64,000 nt of DNA from a virus. Location of the stretch: the IMG/VR virus record IMGVR_UViG_3300027724_000010, positions 5,815 through 69,814 of that record; one strand, 5' to 3'. Below are positions 5,782-54,758 of this stretch, piece after piece (the first letter of the stretch is position 1; each line of letters opens with the position of its first letter). The notes beneath the pieces are model-generated. The model made no database searches, was not told the DNA's origin, and saw nothing but the letters and a program-made list of their open reading frames with translations. A program made the translations under genes and the position numbers.

Positions 5782-5832
5782 TTTATTAAAGTTTGTGTTG
5801 TTATTTCTAAAGCATATAATGTAGCATCTTCA

Positions 5833-29214: not shown

Positions 29215-29692
29215 TTGGAGTTTTGTTATTTTTTATGAGTATTTTATTTATATTTATAAACACATCACTACCCACAAATACTTTTTTACCAGAATATTGA
29301 TCACTCATTGGGTGAACAACTTCTAAAATATTTCCACTAACTATATTTGTTTTAAACTTTTGAGCATCTCTACCCATCAATAACCAAATAATATCTGGTC
29401 TTTTTTTACTTAAACTTGTTATTAGATGCTCAGTAAATGGTTTCCATATTTTACTATGAGAACCAGATAAACCTTGCTCAACAGTTAAAGAAGCGTTTAA
29501 TAATAAAACACCTTGCTCGCACCAATTAAACAATGATTTAGCTTGATAAACAGGATTACCATATATTGGAAACCCTGTTCTTTTTAATTCTTCAAATATT
29601 ATTTTTAAACTAGGATTTATATATCCATTTTCTGTAGCAAATGCTACTCCACACGCTGATGGTACACACTTGTATAATCCAGGATAAGGCAT
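29174..29692 (-). CDS. uracil-DNA glycosylase, exon 2 (family 1 UDG C-terminal two thirds)
   Basis: GVLLLNASLTV…GSHSKIWKPFTEHLI…IIWLLMGRDAQK…HPMS is colinear with family-1 UDG from the GQDPY motif onward. Confidence 0.85.
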   Translation of the reverse strand: MPYPGLYKCVPSACGVAFATENGYINPSLKIIFEELKRTGFPIYGNPVYQAKSLFNWCEQGVLLLNASLTVEQGLSGSHSKIWKPFTEHLITSLSKKRPDIIWLLMGRDAQKFKTNIVSGNILEVVHPMSDQYSGKKVFVGSDVFININKILIKNNKTPIEWGNKDIYYKNN

Positions 29693-30763
29693 TTTGTTAT
29701 CACTAAGACTCTTTATTCTTAGTTTCTGTACTTTTATTTTCGAGTTATAGGTACAGTTCAGACTATATCTTCTACTTTTCAGTAGTGCTGATTTCGTGGA
29801 TATATTATATTCTATAAATTATTATTTATAGTTTCAATATCTAGTCGTTAGGCATTTACTAATATATTATTATTAGATTTAGCAAGGGATTGTCCACTTC
29901 TGGATATTCCCCTTTTAACAGCATTTATACAGAACCCTCATGTAATTTATATATCATTGAAGGAATAATATAAGGTTTAATTATATTAGTAAAATTTATA
30001 ACAGATTTTAGTTTTATATAAATAGAATTATAATAGGAATGATAACTTGCTTCTATATTAAATTTATCTTTTAATAATTTTATTAAAAATAAAACTTCTT
30101 CTTTTGAGAATGAGCAAGTATATATCATATATCCATGTGTAGCTTTACTACCATCATCCATAAACCAAATTGCTAACCCAAAAGAATCAATTTTAGTTAT
30201 AAAATCTTTATTGATAATTTTAATATTATCTTTATAAAAAAAATTTCTATATTTACTAAATATAGGATTAGATTTACTTTTGAAAGTATAATTTTGATTT
30301 AATTTATTTTTAAATCTATTATCTATATTTTCGTAATATCTAAATTTTCCTGCTAATTTAAAATCATTTAAAAAATTATGTTTATATTGACAATACTCTT
30401 TTTGTTTTACACCATGTGCGAAAACCATGCTGGATTGTTTTGCTAATCCTGATATTTTAGATAGGTACCCATCACCTAATAATGAACCAATTATAAATTG
30501 ATCCAAAATATCCGAATCTATACTTAGATATCTATTCGATTTTAAACTATAACGATTTAAATCTGAAATGACCTTTTTTACAGGTATTTTCAGCAAATCA
30601 GCAATTTCTATATTAGTTAATTTATTAGAATATAATTCTAATATATTTTCTGTTAATTTACTTTTTTTTCGTATTTTCATTGTGAATTATTTTTCACAAA
30701 TATACTAAATTAATCCTAATATCCCAACTTTATTATATTAATAAATTGTTAAATATTTTAAAA
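29690..30763 (-). mobile_element. group I intron interrupting the UDG gene after the GQD codons; carries a LAGLIDADG endonuclease ORF
   Basis: UDG ORF breaks at GQD|PYPG; minus-sense R-like CCTAACGACTAGAT (~29843) and S-like GATATAGTCTGAAC (~29748); the last intron base is G (omega-G) immediately before the CCT codon. Confidence 0.65.
29925..30680 (-). CDS. LAGLIDADG homing endonuclease (double-motif)
   Basis: FIIGSLLGDGYLSK and LAIWFMDDGSK motifs ~100 aa apart. Confidence 0.8.
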   Translation of the reverse strand: MKIRKKSKLTENILELYSNKLTNIEIADLLKIPVKKVISDLNRYSLKSNRYLSIDSDILDQFIIGSLLGDGYLSKISGLAKQSSMVFAHGVKQKEYCQYKHNFLNDFKLAGKFRYYENIDNRFKNKLNQNYTFKSKSNPIFSKYRNFFYKDNIKIINKDFITKIDSFGLAIWFMDDGSKATHGYMIYTCSFSKEEVLFLIKLLKDKFNIEASYHSYYNSIYIKLKSVINFTNIIKPYIIPSMIYKLHEGSV

Positions 30764-31423: not shown

Positions 31424-32410
31424 AGATCCAAAATATACTGCTAATTGTTGTCAATTTGTTATCTTACAAGTTCTTTATCTTGTAATTCTTATAGTTTCCT
31501 ATAAGTTCAGACTATATCATATTCTTTATAATTTATTTACTTTTTATAACTATTATTAATATTTTTTATTATATTTGCACTTATGAATAAAAATGAACAA
31601 ATAGTAAAATCGCTTCATAAAGAAGGATTAAACGATAGTCAAATTAATGCTATAAGTGGTATATATAGAAGTACTGTTGGTAAAATACGTAAAAAATTAG
31701 ATTTAGAATCTAATGGTTCTAAATATGTACCATTATACAGTAAACTTAAAGAACTCTATTTGGATAATCTAACGGATTCTGAAATAGCTAAAAAATTAGA
31801 TATATCAGATAAAGCTGTATTCTATATTAGAAAACAATTAGATTTAAAAACCAAATTTAAAGTTAAAAAATATTATAACTCTATTGATAAAAGAAAAGGT
31901 TACTGGTTACGTAATATTCGTAATTCAGCAATGCAAAGAAATTTAGATTATAACTTACAAATAGAAGATTTTGATTTACCAGAATTTTGTCCACTACTTG
32001 GGACAAAATTAAATTATAATGGTAAACCAAATGATCCTTATAACGCTAGTATAGATCGTATAGATAATACTAAAGGTTATATTAAAGGTAATGTTATAGT
32101 TATATCTAGAAAAGCTAACCAAATGAAAAATTCTGGTACACTTGACGAATTATTAACTTTTGCTTCTAATATCAATATTCTTGTAAATTATTATAAAGAT
32201 CAAGGCGCTCTTGGAGATATTACCGACGTATTTCCAAACATAGTATTATGTAAAGAAATTTAGTCTCGATCTCTAGTCGTTGAACTTTTAAAGTTATTTC
32301 TAACTAAACTTAGCTGCTGATTGACATATACAATATATATTGTACTTAGTGTTCCAGCAATTCACCTCATTTTTAACCATAAATCACTTTATGGTGGGTC
32401 CCAACATTAG
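31424..32410 (-). mobile_element. group I intron in the class-I GATase gene, carrying an antisense HNH endonuclease ORF in its P8 region
   Basis: host ORF breaks right after GICLGF; minus-sense R AAAGTTCAACGACTAG (~32280) and S GATATAGTCTGAAC (~31503); plausible U/G splice sites giving …GICLGF|TQNLIYHPQ…. Confidence 0.6.
31583..32263 (+). CDS. HNH homing endonuclease (IDRIDN-type) with an N-terminal helix-turn-helix-like region
   Basis: PLLGTKLNYNGKPNDPYNASIDRIDNTKGYIKGNVIVISRKANQMKN; encoded opposite to the surrounding genes and the intron. Confidence 0.75.
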   Translation: MNKNEQIVKSLHKEGLNDSQINAISGIYRSTVGKIRKKLDLESNGSKYVPLYSKLKELYLDNLTDSEIAKKLDISDKAVFYIRKQLDLKTKFKVKKYYNSIDKRKGYWLRNIRNSAMQRNLDYNLQIEDFDLPEFCPLLGTKLNYNGKPNDPYNASIDRIDNTKGYIKGNVIVISRKANQMKNSGTLDELLTFASNINILVNYYKDQGALGDITDVFPNIVLCKEI

Positions 32411-32721
32411 TTAAACCCTAAACATATACCGAATATAGGAGTTTTAGAATCAATATACGCTTTCAATCTATTATTCATAAAGAAATCTTTATAAACATCT
32501 GTATTAGAAGTATAAAATCCTGGTACTTCACCATAATTTGCTGGATTAACATCTAATCCACCTGGTAATAGTATCATATCTACATCTACTTTTTCTTCCC
32601 ACGGTAATATAATACGTGGATTACCAAAATTACTAATAAACTCTAAATATGTTTTATTAGCACCAAAACTGTTATCACCCATAGATGATCCTGGAATACC
32701 TATTACTTTTTTTTTACTCAT
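32407..32721 (-). CDS. class-I GATase-like gamma-glutamyl hydrolase, exon 1
   Basis: ILLPGGLDV…PIFGICLGF nucleophile-elbow region; the ORF stops immediately after it. Confidence 0.65.
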   Translation of the reverse strand: MSKKKVIGIPGSSMGDNSFGANKTYLEFISNFGNPRIILPWEEKVDVDMILLPGGLDVNPANYGEVPGFYTSNTDVYKDFFMNNRLKAYIDSKTPIFGICLGFN

Positions 32722-33712: not shown

Positions 33713-34673
33713 CTCTTTTTAATTTTTGTTTAAACAACTCTTCTAAATCTTCATAACTATATTCTACTACAAAAGCAAATGGATCTTTACATCCAGTATC
33801 TAATGGTAGATTAAAATAGTTAAGACCATATTCGTTTGTATATTCTATACATTTTTTAACTCCTGTTGCATCGTTATCATAATTTACATAAATAGTTTTA
33901 AACCTTGTTTGTAAATCATAAATATCGAAAGGAGATATAAACATATTTTCTGTATGCGGAGCTATTGCGGGATATCCAAGTTTAGACCAAACTATTATAT
34001 CTTTATAACTTTTAGTAATTATTAGTATATCACCTTTTTCTGGTAATTTATCATAACCTTGTATATGACCAGCTACATTTTTACCATAAAACTTTAATCT
34101 TGGATCTTTAGCTAGTGGTCTATAACCTTTATATATTTGATTTTTTTTATCAAACATATATATAAATAACGGATCTCCAATTTTAGATTTATGCCATATA
34201 ATACCATTATTTCTAATCTCACCAGAATAAATATCCCAATATTTTAAATCTTGTGCTGTAATATTTGCTTTACTCCAATATTCTAATTCCCAATCATGAA
34301 AATAATTTCTAATCTTGCAATAAGATTCGATTTCATTTGTTATAGGAGTATTTATTGTTATTTTTTTATGTTCTTTATTTAAGTATATATCGTTATATAT
34401 TTTATCGTAAGCTTGAGCTATTGATATATTAAAATATTGAGCAACAAATTCTACAGCGTTTTTTGGATTATTACTAATACCAAAATCAGTCCATTTCCAT
34501 TCACCATTATAAAAAGAAATTCTAAAACTAGCATTTCCTTCAGTACGAAGTGGAGATTTTATCCATTGATTATTCTCAAATTCTCCTATATAATAAATAT
34601 ATATATCTTCATCAGATACATAGTTATTTAAATCTTTTTTAGTGTAAATGTATATATTATTTATATCAAACAT
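33687..34673 (-). CDS. putative DNA primase (TOPRIM-type)
   Basis: C-terminal half has ILIITKSYKD…YVNYDNDATGVKK resembling TOPRIM DxDxAG; N-terminal region RTEGNASFRI…W; located next to the DnaB-like helicase block. Confidence 0.45.
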   Translation of the reverse strand: MFDINNIYIYTKKDLNNYVSDEDIYIYYIGEFENNQWIKSPLRTEGNASFRISFYNGEWKWTDFGISNNPKNAVEFVAQYFNISIAQAYDKIYNDIYLNKEHKKITINTPITNEIESYCKIRNYFHDWELEYWSKANITAQDLKYWDIYSGEIRNNGIIWHKSKIGDPLFIYMFDKKNQIYKGYRPLAKDPRLKFYGKNVAGHIQGYDKLPEKGDILIITKSYKDIIVWSKLGYPAIAPHTENMFISPFDIYDLQTRFKTIYVNYDNDATGVKKCIEYTNEYGLNYFNLPLDTGCKDPFAFVVEYSYEDLEELFKQKLKRDENIRDIR

Positions 34674-34684
34674 TCTATATTATA

Positions 34685-34716
34685 TAAAAAAAGAGAGTAG
34701 CATTACACTACTCTCT
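34685..34716 (-). terminator. rho-independent terminator (minus strand)
   Basis: GAGAGTAG-CATTACA-CTACTCTC hairpin followed on the minus strand by T7. Confidence 0.55.
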
Positions 34717-34747
34717 AATAATCAAAAATATTTAAAATGCATACACG

Positions 34748-35377
34748 TTATATGTCATCAATACTAGATATTGACAATTTTGTATCATCTTCTTCTTCTG
34801 CAACACCAGTTAATCCAGCAGCTTCTATCAAATCTAATTCATAAGAAGTATATTGAAAATCTGGTTTACCATCTATCATTGGTTGTATTACACCTTTACC
34901 CCTGTATTTAGGTAATTTACTATAACCATTTTTATCCTTTACTACTTTTAAGTATACAGGATCATTGGTTTTATTAGTATTTACAACTTCACAATACTTT
35001 TCTACAAACTCATCAAATGTTTGTACTGCCGGTATTGTATTCATTGTAGCTTGACTAACTCCACAAGATGTAGCTATATGTCTAATATACCCCATATATT
35101 GCTTCATTAATCTATCATACTCTTCTTGAGCAGTCTCTGTTGTACCATCTTCTTTTAAACGATTATTATTACAGTACTCCAATTTAGGAGGTAATAATGA
35201 ATCAGTTAAAAACGAAATAGTATCATCACTATCATTTATGCGTTTAAACATAAACTTTACAGCAGAAATATGCTCATTTGGTTCTACTGAATGTAAAACT
35301 ACATTATCTACTGCTGTACTTACTGGAAACGGTACTGTGGTTCTTTTTTTACCACCTGTGTTATTAATATCAAACAT
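34748..35377 (-). CDS. hypothetical protein with an acidic C-terminal tail (possible ssDNA-binding protein)
   Basis: 209-aa ORF ending …AEEEDDTKLSISSIDDI, reminiscent of phage SSB acidic tails; no OB motif verified. Confidence 0.5.
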   Translation of the reverse strand: MFDINNTGGKKRTTVPFPVSTAVDNVVLHSVEPNEHISAVKFMFKRINDSDDTISFLTDSLLPPKLEYCNNNRLKEDGTTETAQEEYDRLMKQYMGYIRHIATSCGVSQATMNTIPAVQTFDEFVEKYCEVVNTNKTNDPVYLKVVKDKNGYSKLPKYRGKGVIQPMIDGKPDFQYTSYELDLIEAAGLTGVAEEEDDTKLSISSIDDI

Positions 35378-35395
35378 ATTTTATGTATTTAATTT

Positions 35396-35734
35396 TTATT
35401 TGTTATTTGTTATTTCTACTTTTTTGTTTTTAATAGCAGTTAAGTAATCTGCATTTTTATGTAAATTTATATAACTAGAATGAACAGCTTGTAAGCTATC
35501 CAAATCTGTTGTTGTTCGAATTATATCTAAAGCATCATCTAACTCACTTCTACCTTTAGAAGCCCAATCTCTAAGAATACCACCAGTATCTTCTGATATA
35601 AGAAACTCTGGTACATCTGTAAATAACCCTGTTCTATCTTTAGATGAAGTCGCTAAATGATTATCATTAGTAATCTCAAACACTAAATCCATTTCGTAAC
35701 TAAAACCATCTCTTGTAACTTCTTGTAAACCCAT
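35396..35734 (-). CDS. RecA-fold ATPase (Sak4/AAA_24-like), exon 2
   Basis: continues the RecA-like core (…DLVFEI…SSKDRTG…) after the intron. Confidence 0.5.
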   Translation of the reverse strand: MGLQEVTRDGFSYEMDLVFEITNDNHLATSSKDRTGLFTDVPEFLISEDTGGILRDWASKGRSELDDALDIIRTTTDLDSLQAVHSSYINLHKNADYLTAIKNKKVEITNNK

Positions 35735-36321
35735 TTTTTGTACAGTATTTTTACCGTTAGATCCAGTAACAATAGCAAACTCTTCTTTTCTTCTAACAGT
35801 ACAAAATACATGACAACTTGATGTTAATATCGCATCAATGAAACGATTATGTCTTGGAGTTACACTACCCCAATTCTGAAATGTACCACCTAATCTAGAA
35901 TGTATTTCTAAACAACCCGTTTAGATTCTTATTATTTCTAATAAGCTTAGACTATATCTTATTTATTATTAAGCATGTATTTACTATTATAAATATAATT
36001 AATATTATTAATTGTATTAACAATACAATAAATACCAGAAACTGGTGAAACGGATCTCCAGTTACTTAATATAAATTGCTCCGTTTCGGGAATACTATTT
36101 AGTATTTTATCCCTACTCCCCATCACAGGGATAGTCGTTGAACTTTCACCATTTAAGGCGCTTAGCTGCTGATTGTCCATTTTATAAATATTTTTTGCAA
36201 ATATACAATAAATATTTAAATATATATATTATTTTCAAACTTTCACGCTTATTTTTTCAAATTACGTTGTAGTTAACATATCTTTAGGAGTTTCCAGCAA
36301 TTAGAAGCATAAAGGCAGTTG
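35735..36321 (-). mobile_element. ORF-less group I intron in the RecA-fold ATPase gene, homologous to the GATase intron core
   Basis: minus-sense R AAAGTTCAACGACT (~36145) and S GATATAGTCTAAGC (~35950); shares agtcgttgaacttt…cttagctgctgattg…ccagcaatt blocks with 32270-32370; elevated local GC. Confidence 0.6.
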
Positions 36322-36645
36322 TTATTTACCTTCTCCGCTCCATTCATGTGTGATACTATCTATTATAATTACATCCATTTCAGCTTTTTCTGCTGTATGG
36401 ATAGCTTCAATATATCTTTCTGGAGTATACGGCGCTGTTAAACTTATAGTATTAAACTCACCCATATCCGAATATAAAGAAGCAGAATCTCTCTCTGTGT
36501 CTATTACACAAATCTTAGACCAATCTCCACATAACCCATATGCTGTTTTTAAAGCACTATAGGTTTTACCACTACCTGCTGATGCAGAAAATAGTATTCT
36601 CAATTTTTTAGCTTTCTTGGAAGCTTTCTTTAAAACAAAACTCAT
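36322..36645 (-). CDS. RecA-fold ATPase (Sak4/AAA_24-like), exon 1
   Basis: Walker A SASAGSGKT and Walker B VIIIDSITHEW. Confidence 0.65.
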   Translation of the reverse strand: MSFVLKKASKKAKKLRILFSASAGSGKTYSALKTAYGLCGDWSKICVIDTERDSASLYSDMGEFNTISLTAPYTPERYIEAIHTAEKAEMDVIIIDSITHEWSGEGK

Positions 36646-36673
36646 ACTCTATATTTAAATTTTTTATATTTTA

Positions 36674-37168
36674 TTAATCATAAATCGAACTTTTGATTAG
36701 ATCATCTAACCAAATAGTTCCCGAATTAGGAACTTTTAACAATACACAGGCGTATTCACGAGCGTTTAATTTACGATTATAATCAAAAGATTGATCTTCG
36801 TTTATTAATCCTGTTTTAGTTGTATAAACAATACTCTGATCATTTATTTTGATAGTGTATTTAGCAGATGGATCATCAACTACTACATTAAGCTGATCAA
36901 GATGATCTTTATCTATTTTGTAGATAAAAAATCCATTCATATCATAATAATAACTACCATTAACCACATCATGATTCTGAGGTACTACTATATATAAAGG
37001 ATCGCTTTCTATAGCCATCAATCTATTACCAAATACTTTAATAGTATTTGTAGGTTTATGTAATATACAAACACTACAATTTGGTGAATCTATATCTAAT
37101 CTATCTTTTATATATTTTTTTGTTTCTTGGGTTTTCAATATAAAGAACCCAGGTTTTATATTTGACAT
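36674..37168 (-). CDS. hypothetical protein
   Basis: 164-aa ORF. Confidence 0.5.
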   Translation of the reverse strand: MSNIKPGFFILKTQETKKYIKDRLDIDSPNCSVCILHKPTNTIKVFGNRLMAIESDPLYIVVPQNHDVVNGSYYYDMNGFFIYKIDKDHLDQLNVVVDDPSAKYTIKINDQSIVYTTKTGLINEDQSFDYNRKLNAREYACVLLKVPNSGTIWLDDLIKSSIYD

Positions 37169-37178
37169 ATTTTATATT

Positions 37179-38198
37179 TTAATATTCTACATTTTTTCTT
37201 TTAAGAGGTATTATAGTATTTACTTCTAACTTATTAATAAACTCTTGGATAGACTCTCCAACATCTCTCCCTTTGATAATATGAGCATAAAGTATACGTT
37301 CTTCTTTACCGTTTACTACATGAGTAAGCGGTCTTCCATTATATTCTGTACCTTTACCATTAGATTTTAAATATTTATATGGACTATTTAATACTAACAT
37401 TACATCACATATATGATACAACTGTCTACCAAAATAAATATCTGTATATAAAGGATACATAAGTTCACTTTTATGTAATCTTTCTGGTTTTAGCATGGAA
37501 TCGTTTAATTGAGATAATATTAAACTTGTAACACAAGCTTTGTTATTACCATTTTTATCACCATTCGCATTAGAATAACGTTTTTTAATTATATTTAGTT
37601 TATTAACTAAGTTATTAATTGCTTTATGCTCATCATCTCCATCGACTAATAAAGTATGGTCTAAACACATTAATACTTCTTTACCGTATCCAGGTTGACC
37701 TTCTGAACAAAATAAACAAATATAGTTATATATTTCTTCATCTGATCCACCATATTCGTAATAATATATCGGAAGTTTGGATAATGCTTCCAATTGTGAT
37801 TGATCTATATCTATATCAGCAGCTTTGAGATATAAATCTTTAACTTTAATATTATTAGCTGCTGAAATAATTCTACTAATCAATGATCTAACAGGCATTT
37901 CTAAAGTAAAAAACAAAACTACAGTATTCGGATTTGCTATTGGTGCATGCATTATTATATTATTTAATAATGTAGTTTTACCACTACCAGAGTGTCCAGC
38001 TATACAACATACAGTATTTTTTGGAATACCATCTAGCATAGCTTCGTTAAGATTCGAATACGGTGTTTTTATACCGGGTACATACCCATCTTTTAGTTTA
38101 GATATATAATTATTGTATTGATCAATACCTTTTGTTACTGAGATCATATCATTAGTAACACTATTTGCTTTAAAAGAGTTTTTTTTTACAAAATCCAT
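37179..38198 (-). CDS. DnaB-like replicative helicase (RecA-like C-terminal domain)
   Basis: CIAGHSGSGKTTLLNNII…VVLFFTLEMPVRSL…R matches DnaB helicase H1/H1a/H2 motifs. Confidence 0.75.
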   Translation of the reverse strand: MDFVKKNSFKANSVTNDMISVTKGIDQYNNYISKLKDGYVPGIKTPYSNLNEAMLDGIPKNTVCCIAGHSGSGKTTLLNNIIMHAPIANPNTVVLFFTLEMPVRSLISRIISAANNIKVKDLYLKAADIDIDQSQLEALSKLPIYYYEYGGSDEEIYNYICLFCSEGQPGYGKEVLMCLDHTLLVDGDDEHKAINNLVNKLNIIKKRYSNANGDKNGNNKACVTSLILSQLNDSMLKPERLHKSELMYPLYTDIYFGRQLYHICDVMLVLNSPYKYLKSNGKGTEYNGRPLTHVVNGKEERILYAHIIKGRDVGESIQEFINKLEVNTIIPLKRKNVEY

Positions 38199-38245
38199 TT
38201 TTATGTTATATGTTATTTAATTTTTATATTTTATATTTTTATTTT

Positions 38246-38779
38246 TTATACTTCGTATATTACACCATCTAAAAATATAGATTCTGAACTAGAAGAAACA
38301 GATACAGAAGATCTTCTTTGTTCTTCTTTTTTTAATTCTATAATTGTATTGTGTAATCTACTATCAAAAACTCTCGATCTATCATATTTATATATAAAAT
38401 TAATAAGATCTCCCTGATAAGGGTATTGTTTTGATCTACACCAGTATATAGCAGCTTCTATTACATCTTCTGCTGTATAGTTATGTAAGAATTTTTTATA
38501 AGCTACTTTTAACCTACTTTGTAAAGCGTTGCTACTACATCTATTACCTTCTGGAAAGGTTTCTAATAAATTTTTTAAGAACTGTTTATCTTCATAAAAT
38601 TTTTGTTTATTTGTTATACCTAATTTACTTGCTGTTTCATCTGTTAATATGAGATTATCAAAAGATAACTCATTATCAAAATCAATTTCTGCAAAACCAT
38701 GTGCTACGAGCGATGCTATAACAGATGGTTCTACCATTCTTGCTAAAGATGCTATTTGATCGTTTGTATAATCATTCAT
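38246..38779 (-). CDS. hypothetical protein
   Basis: 177-aa ORF. Confidence 0.5.
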   Translation of the reverse strand: MNDYTNDQIASLARMVEPSVIASLVAHGFAEIDFDNELSFDNLILTDETASKLGITNKQKFYEDKQFLKNLLETFPEGNRCSSNALQSRLKVAYKKFLHNYTAEDVIEAAIYWCRSKQYPYQGDLINFIYKYDRSRVFDSRLHNTIIELKKEEQRRSSVSVSSSSESIFLDGVIYEV

Positions 38780-38996
38780 ATAATTGTCCTACTTTAAACT
38801 TTTTAGGGTTTTCACCAGAAATACCGATGATAATGTTCTGTATATCTACAGTTATTACTGTATCTAATCTATTCTTTCTTAAATATACTCCATTGATTAT
38901 TTCGTACTCAACTGAAGTTTTCTTTTTCTTACTGTTATTTTTTAATTCTCTTTGTTTAACAGTAGATTCTCTAATTTTTATATCTTTTCTAGGCAT
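38772..38996 (-). CDS. hypothetical small basic protein
   Basis: 74-aa ORF. Confidence 0.35.
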   Translation of the reverse strand: MPRKDIKIRESTVKQRELKNNSKKKKTSVEYEIINGVYLRKNRLDTVITVDIQNIIIGISGENPKKFKVGQLYE

Positions 38997-38999
38997 GTT

Positions 39000-40070
39000 T
39001 TATATTAAATCTTGTAATGCGGTTTCTATCCAAACTTTCTGTATTGTATTTTTACTCAACAATACATCTAACTCTGCTGTGTAATTCTCTCTATATAATA
39101 TACCACGTAAAAGTTTTTGCTGTACCATATCATTAGAACTATTAATATCTGCTAATAAGCATCTATCTAAGTTTTCATAATTTTCACCAGCACCACCTTT
39201 ATTTACAAGTACTAAATGATTAATTTTACCTTTTTTAAAATCATTAAAGTATTTATCATCGCTAGTACCGTGATAAAAATATTTTGAAATCTGTTCGGCC
39301 ATTTCACGAGTATTAACAAATACTAATACTCTTTGATCTTTATATTGTTCTAAATAATTCTTAATAAATCTTATTTTAGATTTTAACGTATTTAAAAATC
39401 TAAGTCGGGTAAGCGCTAATAACATTTTTCTATTGGAGTTTGTTTCAGAATCTATTCGCAAAGATAAAGAATTATAATTTTTAACTTCGCTTGTGTAGAA
39501 TGATTTTTTAACTCCTGTAACTTTATCTTTGTATTCTACTAAAATATCCAAATCAGTAGATAAAGGTAATAATATATAATTAACATTAAAGGGAGCAACA
39601 TCTTTCGCATTAACTGCATCTTGTGTAGTATATTTATATACTAATTCTAATTTTAACGCATTAAAAATTATATCTCTCTTTGTACGATTATTTGGAATAG
39701 TACCTGTCATACCAACAATTTTTTTATAAGACATTGTTGATACTATATCAAATCTATTCTTATTTAACATTTGTATCTCATCCAATATTACAATATCCCA
39801 ATCAGTATTGGAATATTTTTTTAAACTATTATAACAAATAGCGTGAATATTTAACTTAAACCCCCATTTTTTAATTTCATTTGGTAATCCTACGTCTCTA
39901 ATTTCAGTATTTGGTACTAACCACAATACTCTTCTATATTTATTTTTATTAATAAAATGTAAAAGAGCTAAGGTTTTACCGGATCTTACGGATTTCTGTA
40001 TTAAACATTTATCACAACTATCTAAAATAGATTGTAACTCATCTTGAGATGTTGTGAGTGTATATTTCAT
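39000..40070 (-). CDS. superfamily-2 (DExD/H) helicase
   Basis: Walker A SVRSGKT and DExx box VILDEIQ, followed by a second RecA-like domain. Confidence 0.65.
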   Translation of the reverse strand: MKYTLTTSQDELQSILDSCDKCLIQKSVRSGKTLALLHFINKNKYRRVLWLVPNTEIRDVGLPNEIKKWGFKLNIHAICYNSLKKYSNTDWDIVILDEIQMLNKNRFDIVSTMSYKKIVGMTGTIPNNRTKRDIIFNALKLELVYKYTTQDAVNAKDVAPFNVNYILLPLSTDLDILVEYKDKVTGVKKSFYTSEVKNYNSLSLRIDSETNSNRKMLLALTRLRFLNTLKSKIRFIKNYLEQYKDQRVLVFVNTREMAEQISKYFYHGTSDDKYFNDFKKGKINHLVLVNKGGAGENYENLDRCLLADINSSNDMVQQKLLRGILYRENYTAELDVLLSKNTIQKVWIETALQDLI

Positions 40071-40169
40071 TTTTTAAATGTTGGTTTTTTGTATATTCTT
40101 GATTTAAGTGGTACTACCAATAACAAATATACTATAACTATTGGTAACACCATTGTTGCAAATATAATA

Positions 40170-40631
40170 CTAATAATATTCATGACCTAATGTTTTAATT
40201 ATTAATTTTCTTTTTCTTATCTTTTTTATATCTCTTTTATTTGTTGCTGTTTTAGGATTAAAAAAGTATAAAATATCACACTCTCTTAAGCGGTCTTCTA
40301 ATAAACAACTAGCAATTTGTAGATCATGTTGTGTAAAAGTATCAGATATAACATATTGATTTTTTTGATAAATAACATCTATAATAGATGACGGAAACTC
40401 TACATTGTTCATACGATTTAATATAGAGCTTCCTATCGCTATTTTATCAATATCTGGTGTACCATTACCTTCTGCGTGTAAAACTCTCGCTATAAGCTCT
40501 GAATTGTGTTTTAGAGCATATTCTGTTAATAATTCACTATGTATTATCTGCTCTTGTTTTTTAACATCCTTATAAGCAAAATATATAAGAAGAATTAAAA
40601 TTATAGCACCAGTTATTGTTAAATATTTCAT
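40170..40631 (-). CDS. SleB-like cell-wall hydrolase (Hydrolase_2) with an N-terminal signal anchor; probable endolysin
   Basis: N-terminal TM helix; HAEGNGTPDIDKIAIGSSILNRMNNVEFPSSIIDVIYQKNQY matches the Hydrolase_2 core. Confidence 0.65.
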   Translation of the reverse strand: MKYLTITGAIILILLIYFAYKDVKKQEQIIHSELLTEYALKHNSELIARVLHAEGNGTPDIDKIAIGSSILNRMNNVEFPSSIIDVIYQKNQYVISDTFTQHDLQIASCLLEDRLRECDILYFFNPKTATNKRDIKKIRKRKLIIKTLGHEYY

Positions 40632-44109: not shown

Positions 44110-45137
44110 TCCCTCTAATAAATTACAATATATTTCTGAAGGTATATGCTTTGGAGATACCTTATTTTTAAATTGTAAATGCGGATAATAACTTACACTT
44201 TTTGTTATCTACTATTACTAGTAGTGTCGGACTATTTCTTAATTTTACGCCAAATAAATCCATATATAGTTGGTTTATATCCATTGCATACTGCATAGAT
44301 ATTTTGCCATTTCCAACTAGGATTTTGTTGTAGAATATCTTCTACTGAGTTCCATATTTTTATAAGATTCATATTTTTATCATATTGATAAAAACAATTC
44401 ATCTTTTGTTTAGCTTTACTAACATTATCACTCATTATGAGTTTAACATTAGGGTTATCTCTCCAGAATATTTTAGATCTATTACCTATTTTAGTAGCTC
44501 TACTGGGATTATTTTTATAACTTTCTAGTTGGGATTTAGACATTAGTTTTTTAGTTTCGTCACTAACTATATTAGATTCATCACTATTATCCGATCTTAA
44601 ATTATATCCACAACGTCTATCTAAAGACGTATAATAATTCATCCAATATAACTCTCTATTTTTCAATAAATCTTCATCTCTATCTAAAACTTCAATAACT
44701 ACTGTTTTAAAATTATCAGCTCCATATTTATACCAAGAATTTATTAAATGTCTATTTTCATCTTTACTTTTAGATTTTAGAGTAGATCTATGATGAACTA
44801 ATCTTTTATATATATTATAAGATCTTCCTATATAAATTTTATTATTTATAATATTTATAATACCATATATCCCACATACGTTATATGTTTCTTTTCTATT
44901 TATAATCATATTTTATATTTTAACTAACGGCAAAGATAGTTAAAATATTTAATATTGCGTAAAATTTTGGACGCTTTTTCATTATAGTTTATGTATTATA
45001 CTATAACTACTTCCTGTTATTAAGATATATCGCTATATCTCAGGTAGTCTCTGCACCTTCTCTCTCTGAGAGCTTGGCTCAAGATTATCCTAACTATAAA
45101 ATTAGGGTTTCCTTGAATTCATCCAATAGTTTTAGTT
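44110..45137 (-). mobile_element. group I intron in the DNA polymerase gene carrying a GIY-YIG endonuclease ORF
   Basis: minus-sense R-like GTGCAGAGACTACC (~45040) and S AAGAAATAGTCCGAC (~44213-44228, just 3' of the endonuclease ORF); the exon-1 ORF ends inside PolB motif A (…FDFN). Confidence 0.55.
44232..44909 (-). CDS. GIY-YIG homing endonuclease
   Basis: CGIYGIINIINNKIYIGRSYNIYKRLVHHRS (GIY…YIG…R…H) then E…N in the catalytic domain, followed by a basic DNA-binding C-terminal half. Confidence 0.8.
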   Translation of the reverse strand: MIINRKETYNVCGIYGIINIINNKIYIGRSYNIYKRLVHHRSTLKSKSKDENRHLINSWYKYGADNFKTVVIEVLDRDEDLLKNRELYWMNYYTSLDRRCGYNLRSDNSDESNIVSDETKKLMSKSQLESYKNNPSRATKIGNRSKIFWRDNPNVKLIMSDNVSKAKQKMNCFYQYDKNMNLIKIWNSVEDILQQNPSWKWQNIYAVCNGYKPTIYGFIWRKIKK

Positions 45138-49993: not shown

Positions 49994-50794
49994 TTATTGT
50001 TTTTGTAAAAGTATATTTGTTCCAGATCCAAATACGTTTCCAGAACCATATTTACTTATACCTTTTCTCGCCCATTCTAATTCTATTTCTAATTCTTTTA
50101 GTTTTAGATTAGCTGGTGTTGATAATAGAGTTGCTGATTTAGCATCAAATTGAGCAGCTTCGTATTTACCTTTAGCTTCTGCTACAAGAGCATTACCAAG
50201 ATTAAGCTTTTCTTCTTCCATTTTAGATGCTAACTTATTTTTCTCTACTTGTTCAGCTGTTTTTTCTGCTTGTTGTGAGATGGTACCCGGTAAATCTACA
50301 TCTGTAATTTGTACTCTTGCAAAGGATAGATAGAAATTTGGTAATTCTTCAGATAAAATTTTACCAAGCTTTTCTTCTGCTTCTGCTCGTTTACTAAGAT
50401 TCAGATCTACTGCTGTATATTGAGGTATAACTTCTTTAGCTGCTGATTTTATTGTTTTTTCTAATTTAGCTTCTACATCAGTAATTTTACTATGTAATAA
50501 ATTTACTTTATCAGGAGTATAATTAAAATCTACAGATATTTCAACATTTGTAAGCATAGAGTTTAAATCATTAAACTCAAATTTTGATATAGTTGTTTTT
50601 TCTCTACAATCGTACTCTACCAAATCATCAAACATCCAATGTAACCCACCGTGGAATCCTTCTGGATAAATAGTTGTCATATTTGTTTCACCACCCCAAC
50701 TCACTTCTACACCCTTATGTCCAGGCGATACGCTTTCGCATGATCCCAAACTAAATACTAATAAAATAGATAAATAACTAAAAAACTTTTTCAA
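49994..50794 (-). CDS. SPFH/Band-7 (prohibitin/HflK-like) domain lipoprotein
   Basis: signal peptide with lipobox LVFSLGSC; SPFH core …ARVQITDVDLP… followed by an A/E/K-rich helical region. Confidence 0.7.
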   Translation of the reverse strand: MKKFFSYLSILLVFSLGSCESVSPGHKGVEVSWGGETNMTTIYPEGFHGGLHWMFDDLVEYDCREKTTISKFEFNDLNSMLTNVEISVDFNYTPDKVNLLHSKITDVEAKLEKTIKSAAKEVIPQYTAVDLNLSKRAEAEEKLGKILSEELPNFYLSFARVQITDVDLPGTISQQAEKTAEQVEKNKLASKMEEEKLNLGNALVAEAKGKYEAAQFDAKSATLLSTPANLKLKELEIELEWARKGISKYGSGNVFGSGTNILLQKQ

Positions 50795-54411: not shown

Positions 54412-54517
54412 TAAAGCAGATGGGACTCGAACCCACGACCACGGCTTTATCAGTGCTGTTAAATTATTATAAGTAGATATTCTACTATACGTGCTCTACC
54501 AGCTGAGCTACTGCTTT
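54412..54517 (-). tRNA. tRNA-like gene with a ~35-nt insertion between the D-arm and anticodon arm; anticodon-loop-like CUGAUAA (Ile GAU-like); non-canonical
   Basis: acceptor AAAGCAG/CTGCTTT, D-arm GCTC-AGCTGGTA-GAGC and T-arm GTGGG-TTCGAGT-CCCAT are all canonical; the middle is 56 nt instead of ~22 and the anticodon stem is weak. Confidence 0.35.
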
Positions 54518-54559: not shown

Positions 54560-54592
54560 CCATGCGGATTGTATAGGACTTGAACCTATCTT
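54560..54592 (-). ncRNA. tRNA 3'-half-like element (T-arm plus a second hairpin), driven by the conserved promoter copy 1
   Basis: minus-sense ATAGG-TTCAAGT-CCTAT T-arm followed by ATCC-GCAT-GGAT; the 3' tail CAATCCGC is shared with the element at 54340. Confidence 0.3.
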
Positions 54593-54606
54593 GCTCGAAA
54601 GCTATT

Positions 54607-54649
54607 AGTTATTATAAGTGTATTATTTGTATCTTTGTCAGATGCGAGG
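54607..54649 (-). promoter_or_regulatory. sigma70-like promoter, copy 1 of a conserved 43-nt element
   Basis: minus-sense CCTCGCATCTGACAAAGATACAAATAATACACTTATAATAACT has a -35-like CTGACA, ~18-nt spacer and -10 TATAAT; 42/43 identical to 55721-55763. Confidence 0.5.
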
Positions 54650-54758
54650 GGAGTACAGGATTCGAACCTGTGTTACGAGCACCCAAAGCTATTTTAAAGT
54701 ATTATAAGTACGTAAACATACTGTATATACGCGTCCTAAACCACTAGACGAACTCCCC
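54646..54758 (-). tRNA. tRNA-like gene with a ~39-nt insertion between the D-arm and anticodon arm; anticodon-loop-like UUUGGGU (Pro UGG-like); non-canonical
   Basis: acceptor GGGGAGT/ACTCCCC, D-arm GTCT-AGTGGTTTA-GGAC and T-arm ACAGG-TTCGAAT-CCTGT are canonical; the insert is related to that of the 54412 element (CGTATA…TACTTATAATAMTTTAA). Confidence 0.35.

Follow-up and report, generated by a model that had tools for sequence, protein, structure and literature searches.

A predicted endonuclease-less group I intron, polymorphic among near-isogenic phages, in an AAA_24-family ATPase gene

Phage group I introns without a functional homing endonuclease have been described in several settings. 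The intron in the nrdB gene of T4, with a defunct I-TevIII, is mobilised in trans by MobE, and collaborative homing has been reported in T3/T7-like phages and for the psbA gene of cyanophages (PMC2790892, PMC3984707); the co-conversion of exon flanks and the trans or collaborative homing of introns lacking an open reading frame (ORF) are also described (PMC3984707, PMC2790892). A survey of Bastillevirinae and other Herelleviridae found that approximately one-third of the introns have no nuclease loop, with ORF-less introns of the IA2/IA3 type (PMC11878797). The same survey describes the under-detection of ORF-less IA-type phage introns by current models and reports mosaic introns, in which the 5' and 3' halves match different groups (PMC11878797). 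An in-frame stop codon just after the 5' splice site is common in the group I introns of bacteria and phages (PMC3984707). In this study, we analysed 64,000 nucleotides (nt) of viral DNA, positions 5,815 to 69,814 of the IMG/VR record IMGVR_UViG_3300027724_000010 (referred to as the window, to which all coordinates refer), in which the gene of an AAA_24-family ATPase is interrupted on the minus strand. The interruption is very probably a 410-nt group I intron of the IA kind that carries no endonuclease gene, is predicted to splice, is polymorphic, and is transferred or removed by short-tract gene conversion.

Similar to the introns of T4 nrdB and of the collaborative systems, the phage group I intron in the window has no working endonuclease, yet it is polymorphic and apparently transferred, with exon flank markers co-converted. 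However, the known systems have an endonuclease gene adjoining the intron gene, and cleavage of the site has been shown for them, whereas the phage in the window has no such gene within approximately 2 to 4 kb; what defines the collaborative systems described so far is therefore missing here. With the ORF-less introns of the Herelleviridae (PMC11878797), the intron shares an IA-like core, possible mosaic halves, weak covariance-model scores, and insertion in conserved motifs of core replication genes. On the other hand, AAA_24 lies outside the four intron-carrying gene clusters reported in that survey, and the phage belongs to a different lineage with a probable Bacteroidota host. No report linking group I introns with AAA_24 was found in the literature searched, and the intron is a new addition to the IA-type group I introns of phages, with AAA_24 as the host gene family. 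It leaves existing knowledge of group I introns unchanged and is a genuine but ordinary element.

At the sequence level, the intron resembles the Kayvirus/Twort-like introns, including that in the recA-like gene of Staphylococcus phage 812 (EF136585), to which it is 72% identical over 179 nt from P3 to P7 with the P5 extension. The two introns have the same core blocks and an IA-type layout, and both host genes encode RecA-fold ATPases of the replication/recombination module. The phage 812 intron differs in carrying the ORF of a LAGLIDADG/DOD endonuclease (I-812II), whereas the intron in the window has neither an ORF nor P2; the guide sequences also differ, and the two host phages are unrelated. 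A common insertion site was ruled out, since the phage 812 intron interrupts Walker A (after ...YGLTGSG), whereas the intron in the window lies after Walker B. An unannotated stretch of the Acinetobacter phage ME3 is 74% identical to the intron over 176 nt. The ME3 core (vB_AbaM_ME3, KU935715.1 138758-138916; positions 2501-2659 of our locus L005) is located in an unannotated gap between tRNA-Met and ME3_134, and it looks like an intron, or the remnant of one, that went unannotated in the published genome of this jumbo phage.

The boundaries of the intron are fixed by alleles that lack it. In a search of 5.8 billion proteins, P0001 (279 amino acids) matched the predicted spliced product along its full length at 100% identity; this protein is encoded without interruption by an 840-nt gene on three metagenome contigs (L001 to L003). 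In megablast alignments of these contigs with the window, the breakpoints fall exactly at 36328/35917, with flanks that are 96.5 to 98.6% identical, and the intron is therefore 35918-36327, 410 nt in length. The intron-less junction GAAGGT/GGATGT, within the insertion-site sequence ...GAGTGGTCTGGAGAAGGTGGATGTTTAGAAATAC..., fits no other register. The intron starts with AAAUAA, in which the second codon is an in-frame stop, and ends with ...UAAACG, the terminal G being at 35918. In the uninterrupted genes, nt 1-318 are colinear with exon 1 and nt 319-840 match exon 2; joining ...GAAGGT (36328) to GGTTGT... (35917) yields the 279-amino acid protein, with a predicted ligated-exon junction of ...GGAGAAGGT/GGTTGTTTAGAA....

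The list of minus-strand ORFs contains a 107-amino acid ORF (36645..36322, ending in TAA) and, 587 nt further on, a 112-amino acid ORF (35734..35396). An earlier note on this DNA had equated the 587 nt between them (35735-36321) with the intron. That placement misses the 5' boundary by 6 nt, because the in-frame stop (AAA TAA, part of the intron itself) was taken as the end of exon 1, and the 3' boundary by 183 nt, because the first ATG was taken as the start of exon 2, the true start being 35917; the exon-2 frame is already open at 35921, which is 185 nt upstream of the ATG that begins the 112-amino acid ORF. The intron had also been described as GC-elevated, but its GC content is 26.3%, compared with values of 25.8% and 31.9% for the window and the exons, respectively. 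The central observation of the note was confirmed, i.e., a group I-like sequence that has R and S elements and no endonuclease ORF interrupts the ATPase gene a short distance downstream of Walker B (VIIIDS), and precise excision restores one RecA-fold protein, as judged by the identity of the spliced product to the uninterrupted protein and by structure prediction. This case indicates that a metagenome allele lacking the intron is enough to locate a splice junction to the exact base, with no need for RNA data. It also bears on annotation, since gene callers split the ATPase into "genes" of 107, 73, and 112 amino acids in at least 14 public contigs, where the correct product is a single 279-amino acid protein.

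The spliced product matches Pfam AAA_24 (PF13479) at 61.2 bits (cut-off, 27) in one stretch, residues 13 to 193, that spans the junction. Its best PHROG is phrog_1366 (268 bits), which is of unknown function; the Sak4-like phrog_124 scores only 31.9 bits (E = 1.8e-7). Exon 1 encodes Walker A (GSGKT) and Walker B (VIIID) and ends with ...GAA GGT, the final base being U in the transcript. The AlphaFold2 model of the 279-amino acid protein has a predicted local distance difference test score of 91.8, and its top Foldseek matches in the PDB are KaiC-CI, RadA, RecA, DMC1, and RAD51 paralogs (probability 1.0, template modelling scores of 0.4 to 0.5); according to the model, the product takes a RecA-superfamily fold. 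A sequence search of the PDB with the protein returned nothing useful. The insertion site separates the codons of two invariant glycines, Gly106 and Gly107, and lies in the block that is best conserved across the family (DSxxHEWxGxGG/CL). The gene order around the ATPase is a DnaB-type helicase, a 164-amino acid gene, AAA_24, and a 209-amino acid gene, which is the same on L001 to L003, and the ATPase gene is part of the replication module of an uncultured AT-rich phage. The helicase is approximately 29% identical to those of crAss-like phages, and the phage has no close cultured relative. Homologs of the ATPase bear Bacteroidota names, and the host is probably a member of the Bacteroidota. 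Separately, a homolog with 81% identity over residues 1 to 176 was observed on the contig L323 (ERZ28613965 scaffold_87160, positions 616-1173). This protein (P0071) diverges abruptly and stops after ...EVTRDG, and the next gene starts 40 nt later; no Rfam signal was found downstream of the truncation, which may represent a different interruption of the same gene family.

The ribozyme elements are listed in Table 1. The internal guide sequence pairs in P1 with the end of exon 1 (GCCUUU with GAAGGU) through 6 base pairs, including a terminal U.G wobble at the splice site (-5.0 kcal/mol), and in P10, directly 5' of the P1 strand, with the start of exon 2 (AACAACU with GGUUGUU) through 7 base pairs (-5.3 kcal/mol). 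The splice sites thus show the features of group I introns, i.e., U at -1 pairing with G, a terminal G (35918), and a contiguous guide for P10 and P1. With an exon of the intron-less type, the P10 energy is -1.0 kcal/mol, compared with -5.3 kcal/mol when +3 is U. Canonical pairs are formed throughout P3, P4, P5, P6, P6a, P7, P7.1, P7.2, and P9. The minimum free energy of the whole intron is -83.1 kcal/mol (z = -3.29), which is more stable than 100 of 100 shuffled sequences. Covariation was evaluated with a MAFFT alignment of the cores of 35 relatives, in which P4 is paired in 99% and P5 in 100% of cells (with UA/CG swaps), and P5b (GC in 17, AU in 15) and P6a are paired in 92-97% and 85%, respectively, with many double changes. 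In the P4-P6 register, 63% of cells are paired, compared with approximately 40% when the partners are slid by 1 to 3 columns, and none of 500 shuffles reached the covariation score. Covariation was also seen in P7.1, with just 64% of cells paired in an imperfect alignment. Within the population itself, the intron of contig L208 carries G63A and C81U, a compensatory change in P5b. Judged from its sequence, the element is probably a group I intron of the phage-typical IA kind (P7.1/P7.2 and no P2); this placement is based on P7.1/P7.2 and the similarity to Kayvirus introns, while the missing P2 is atypical for IA2.

Several features of the locus weigh against this interpretation. The two local matches to Rfam RF00028 obtained in narrow scans (36309-36077, 29.1 bits, E = 3.9e-5 locally; 35960-35930, 21 bits) are below the gathering score of 50 bits, so the group I scan that the note had proposed as a check does not reach threshold, and whole-window scans at gathering or E-value thresholds gave no match. 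The match is split into two pieces because of the long insertions in P5 and P8. Furthermore, P2 is absent, P8 is unusually long and AT-rich, and the covariation is limited to P4-P6 and P7.1, the relatives being located in other genes and P1, P3, P7.2, and the 3' helices being left unaligned by MAFFT. The case illustrates how Rfam models miss AT-rich phage introns. A further pairing that was considered, between exon AGCGGA and intron UCCGUU, is at chance level. Promoter-like sites within the intron do not exceed the shuffle expectation, and a search of IMG/VR for the same guide sequence gave no match.

Splicing would proceed by the standard two-step, guanosine-initiated self-splicing pathway. 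Transcription of the ATPase gene would run through the intron, and the ribosome would halt at the UAA two codons into it, leaving the ribozyme free to fold. The guide GCCUUU would form P1 with GAAGGU, the last six bases of exon 1, placing U.G at the cleavage site, and an exogenous guanosine held in P7 would attack after the final U of exon 1. The guide AACAACU would then pair with the exon-2 start GGUUGUU, and entry of the terminal G (35918) into the guanosine site would lead to exon ligation. The ligated mRNA is predicted to encode the same 279-amino acid protein that intron-less relatives encode directly. At the level of the population, the four linked bases (-12 to -10 and +3) would reflect transfer between genomes, or removal, through gene conversion with a very short tract at the site.

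The intron is polymorphic among near-isogenic phages. At least 14 contigs carry the interrupted gene; they come from wastewater, sludge, and aquatic samples, and variants were tabulated for 13 contigs. Group A contigs are of the window type. Group B (L208, L316, L318, L320, and L322, from five independent assemblies) has intron-less-type variants at nearly all polymorphic exon sites, and outside the intron these contigs are 99.2-99.5% identical to the intron-less contigs, compared with approximately 98.0% to the window. Over the 550 nt that precede the site, L208 and the intron-less L002 have three differences, all of which are in the Ser codon at -12 to -10. Perfect linkage to the intron is limited to positions 307-309 and 321 of the coding sequence (CDS); the next markers, at -16 and +36, are already unlinked. 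The intron of L316 differs from that of the window at 1 of 410 nt, compared with 19 of 711 nt in the exons (Fisher p = 0.0018), and that of L208 is a variant approximately 3% diverged from the window's. Intron-plus and intron-less alleles have 22-23 exon differences, all of them synonymous, and the same holds for the differences that separate groups A and B; the ATPase gene is under purifying selection. In addition, 160 more distant homologous loci, viral and metagenomic, are all uninterrupted (ranking by best segment could hide some exceptions), and the intron is thus derived in this lineage.

These haplotypes suggest that the intron moved between backgrounds at least twice, once as the L316 type and once as the L208 type, through gene conversions whose tracts were very short. 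We infer that it has recently moved or been lost, and the direction of the change, gain or loss, is likewise inferred. The recent mobility proposed in the earlier note is accordingly supported by the presence/absence polymorphism in near-isogenic haplotypes, but not by the argument originally offered for it, the likeness to blocks of an intron in a nearby GATase gene. Assembly chimeras are an unlikely source of group B, since the linked and unlinked markers are only 4 and 33 nt apart, which is shorter than the k-mers, and five independent assemblies agree; this argument draws on the behaviour of de Bruijn assemblers, the final k-mer lengths being deduced from the names of the contigs (k127, k141, SPAdes NODE). 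The near-isogenic set of intron-plus and intron-minus alleles, with its 4-base linked flank, provides compact natural data on the persistence and movement of an endonuclease-less intron.

The intron contains no endonuclease gene; therefore, any break at the site would be made by an enzyme encoded elsewhere (trans or collaborative homing), and otherwise the haplotypes would be products of ordinary recombination during co-infection. The latter explanation, which we rate a little below even chances, holds that the spread was endonuclease-independent, either as an old polymorphism whose linkage was eroded by co-infection recombination or with the intron-less allele generated by conversion, i.e., by loss. 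The exon markers 591, 612, 690-696, and 741 are reticulate among the haplotypes, so that the population evidently recombines often and short linkage could arise without a site-specific break; this also counts against conversion focused on the site. There is no endonuclease gene in or beside the ATPase gene and no haplotype indel across 33766-40556, and the divergence of the L208 intron indicates that the intron lineage is not very young. On the other hand, breakpoints within 4 nt (303/307, in L208) and 33 nt (321/354, in all of group B) of the site would be rare under uniform crossovers, the 99.8% identity of the L316 intron to the window, compared with 97.3% for its exons, suggests a recent localised transfer, and the uninterrupted state of the 160 distant loci argues that the intron is derived in this lineage.

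A stronger claim, which we consider tentative and somewhat unlikely, is that the intron is actively homing in the wild phage population by means of a non-adjacent endonuclease, in which case the sampled haplotypes include donor, recipient, and product, and co-conversion extends over a minimum of 15 nt (-12 to +3). A short conversion tract centred on the site would be an indirect sign of endonuclease cleavage there. If active trans homing were true, the AGC/TCT and U/A differences would mark determinants of enzyme recognition or immunity, and the U at +3 would be co-selected for P10; the locus would then offer a natural, ready-made system for the study of trans homing, in the first intron described in the AAA_24 family. 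Homing in trans by the product of an adjacent gene is disfavoured by the absence of an endonuclease gene from the neighbouring 2 to 4 kb and of any indel between haplotypes in the surrounding region. The only ORF in the intron (73 amino acids) has no Pfam or PHROG match, and the neighbouring 164- and 209-amino acid genes have no family match and are also present in intron-less haplotypes. Candidate trans enzymes are encoded by a GIY-YIG gene (44232-44909), an HNH/EndoVII-like ORF (31583-32263), and a LAGLIDADG ORF (29925-30680). The first of these is a free-standing minus-strand gene of 225 amino acids (Pfam, 38 bits), located approximately 8 kb upstream of the ATPase gene. The 8-mer ATGTTTAG was examined as a common endonuclease target, since it occurs at the intron-less ATPase site (+3 to +10) and in exon 1 of the GATase gene (-12 to -5); it is likely a chance match because its positions relative to the two insertion sites differ.

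The GATase intron, on the same strand and 3.5 kb away, is central to another explanation. Three blocks, AATTGCTGGAA, CAATCAGCAGCTAAG, and GTTCAACGACTA (11, 15, and 12 nt), are exact and colinear in the two introns, whose likeness the earlier note had pointed out, and occur essentially nowhere else in the window; a further candidate core block, at 50435, is ordinary coding sequence and a chance match. From these blocks, the ATPase intron had been regarded as a copy of the GATase intron (31452-32413) that arose recently by duplication within the genome, with the endonuclease gene since lost from it and retained in one copy only. We consider this improbable. The blocks are the J3/4-P4, P4'-P6, and J6/7-P7 core elements of a widespread subfamily of phage introns; a 21-mer spanning J3/4-P4-P5 has exact matches in at least 120 contigs of IMG/VR as well as in bacterial contigs from 25 species. 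In uniform local alignments, the 5' half of the ATPase intron scores 69-70 against the phage 812 recA intron and the phage ME3 element, whereas it scores 20 against the GATase intron (shuffled sequences, 14.8 +/- 1.8). Duplication is thus unsupported, because the shared blocks are subfamily core and the 5' half is nearer to the introns of Staphylococcus and Acinetobacter phages. Moreover, the P5 extension of approximately 110 nt has no counterpart in the GATase intron, whose P5 is short, and the guide sequences (GACCC and UGUUG for P1 and P10 of the GATase intron) and target sites differ. The last approximately 95 nt (the P8 3' strand, P7', and P9) favour a closer relationship, being closest to the GATase intron at approximately 80% identity, compared with at most 69% over a comparable length for the best other of approximately 200 fetched loci. 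By this comparison, the 3' third may, at most, have been exchanged between the co-resident introns.

It is very improbable that the insertion is a dead, non-splicing remnant in an ATPase gene that is a pseudogene or encodes two separate polypeptides, as the sub-threshold Rfam scores and the 107- and 112-amino acid fragments listed by gene callers might suggest, since all core helices and both splice-site pairings are intact, P5b has undergone a compensatory change within the population, the exon differences are synonymous across all haplotypes, the 61 exon-2 codons upstream of the first ATG are open and conserved, and the interrupted allele recurs in contigs from many samples.

Table 1. Coordinates of the ATPase gene, the elements of its intron, and other introns in the window
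Feature	Position in window	Strand	Remarks
Group I intron, 410 nt, without endonuclease ORF	35918..36327	-	Absent from intron-less contigs; partial matches to Rfam RF00028
Exon 1 of AAA_24/RecA-superfamily ATPase gene	36328..36645	-	Codons 1-106; ORF list and frame analysis
Exon 2 of ATPase gene	35396..35917	-	Codons 107-279 and stop; starts GGT TGT TTA GAA
Ser codon AGC at -12 to -10 (CDS 307-309)	36337..36339	-	Intron-less contigs all have TCT; perfect linkage to intron
Exon-2 base +3 (CDS 321), GGT	35915	-	GGA in intron-less alleles; linked to intron; completes 7-base-pair P10
Internal guide sequence	36311..36323	-	Intron nt 5-11 AACAACU (P10), then nt 12-17 GCCUUU (P1); pairing and duplex energies
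Putative ribozyme core, 5' part, P3 to P3'	36077..36309	-	Rfam Intron_gpI positions 50-157, 29.1 bits
P3	36309-36304/36082-36077	-	Intron 19-24/246-251; J3/4 next
P4	36299-36294/36172-36167	-	Intron 29-34/156-161
P5 and branched P5 extension	36290-36175	-	P5 is intron 39-41/150-152
P6/P6a	36166-36142	-	
R element GTTCAACGACTA	36132-36143	-	
J6/7-P7 5' strand	36136-36132	-	P7 is intron 192-196/374-378
P7.1/P7.2	36131-36088	-	Two stable hairpins, intron 197-211 and 215-240
P8, long AT-rich branched hairpin	35962..36076	-	No coding capacity; domain folding
J8/7-P7 3' strand-P9	35928..35960	-	P7 3' strand UAGUC, 35954-35950; Rfam Intron_gpI positions 221-251, 21 bits
S element AAGATATAGTCT	35949-35960	-	
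P9 hairpin with GAAA loop	35945-35928	-	Pairing check
73-amino acid ORF in intron, judged spurious	35959..36180	-	Runs through P5'-P4'-P6-P7-P8
GATase/Peptidase_C26 intron, 962 nt	31452-32413	-	Exon 1 ends 32414, exon 2 starts 31451; contiguous Peptidase_C26 match
UDG-superfamily gene intron, 1074 nt	29690-30763	-	Site between GQD and PYPG; contiguous Pfam match when spliced

Including the ATPase intron, three group I introns (ATPase, GATase, and UDG) are located within the same 7 kb. A 3-kb Rfam scan over the GATase and UDG introns gave no match. In the GATase intron, P1 is formed by GGGUU/GACCC and P10 by CAACA/UGUUG. It is longer than the ATPase intron at 962 nt and carries in P8 an ORF on the opposite, plus strand (31583-32263) for a 226-amino acid protein with N-terminal helix-turn-helix domains and an HNH/EndoVII-like C terminus (phrog_3322, 98 bits). 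The UDG intron has a LAGLIDADG_2 ORF (30680..29925, 114 bits) near its 5' end, and its P4/P6 core is unlike those of the other two introns. With respect to the wider subfamily, four IMG/VR contigs of 110-205 kb (L130, L160, L119, and L092) each contain 3-5 introns of this subfamily within approximately 10 kb, and the exact 21-mer is also present in giant-virus bins (GVMAG contigs L098, L118, L126, and L146).

Two tRNA matches were obtained with Rfam elsewhere on the minus strand of the window, at 54412-54517 and 54647-54758 (45.9 and 40.4 bits, respectively), with a T-arm-like element near 54560-54640. Neither was called by ARAGORN. Their anticodon arms contain inserts of 46 and 52 nt, which are too short to be group I introns and which have the motif ACTTATAATA in common.

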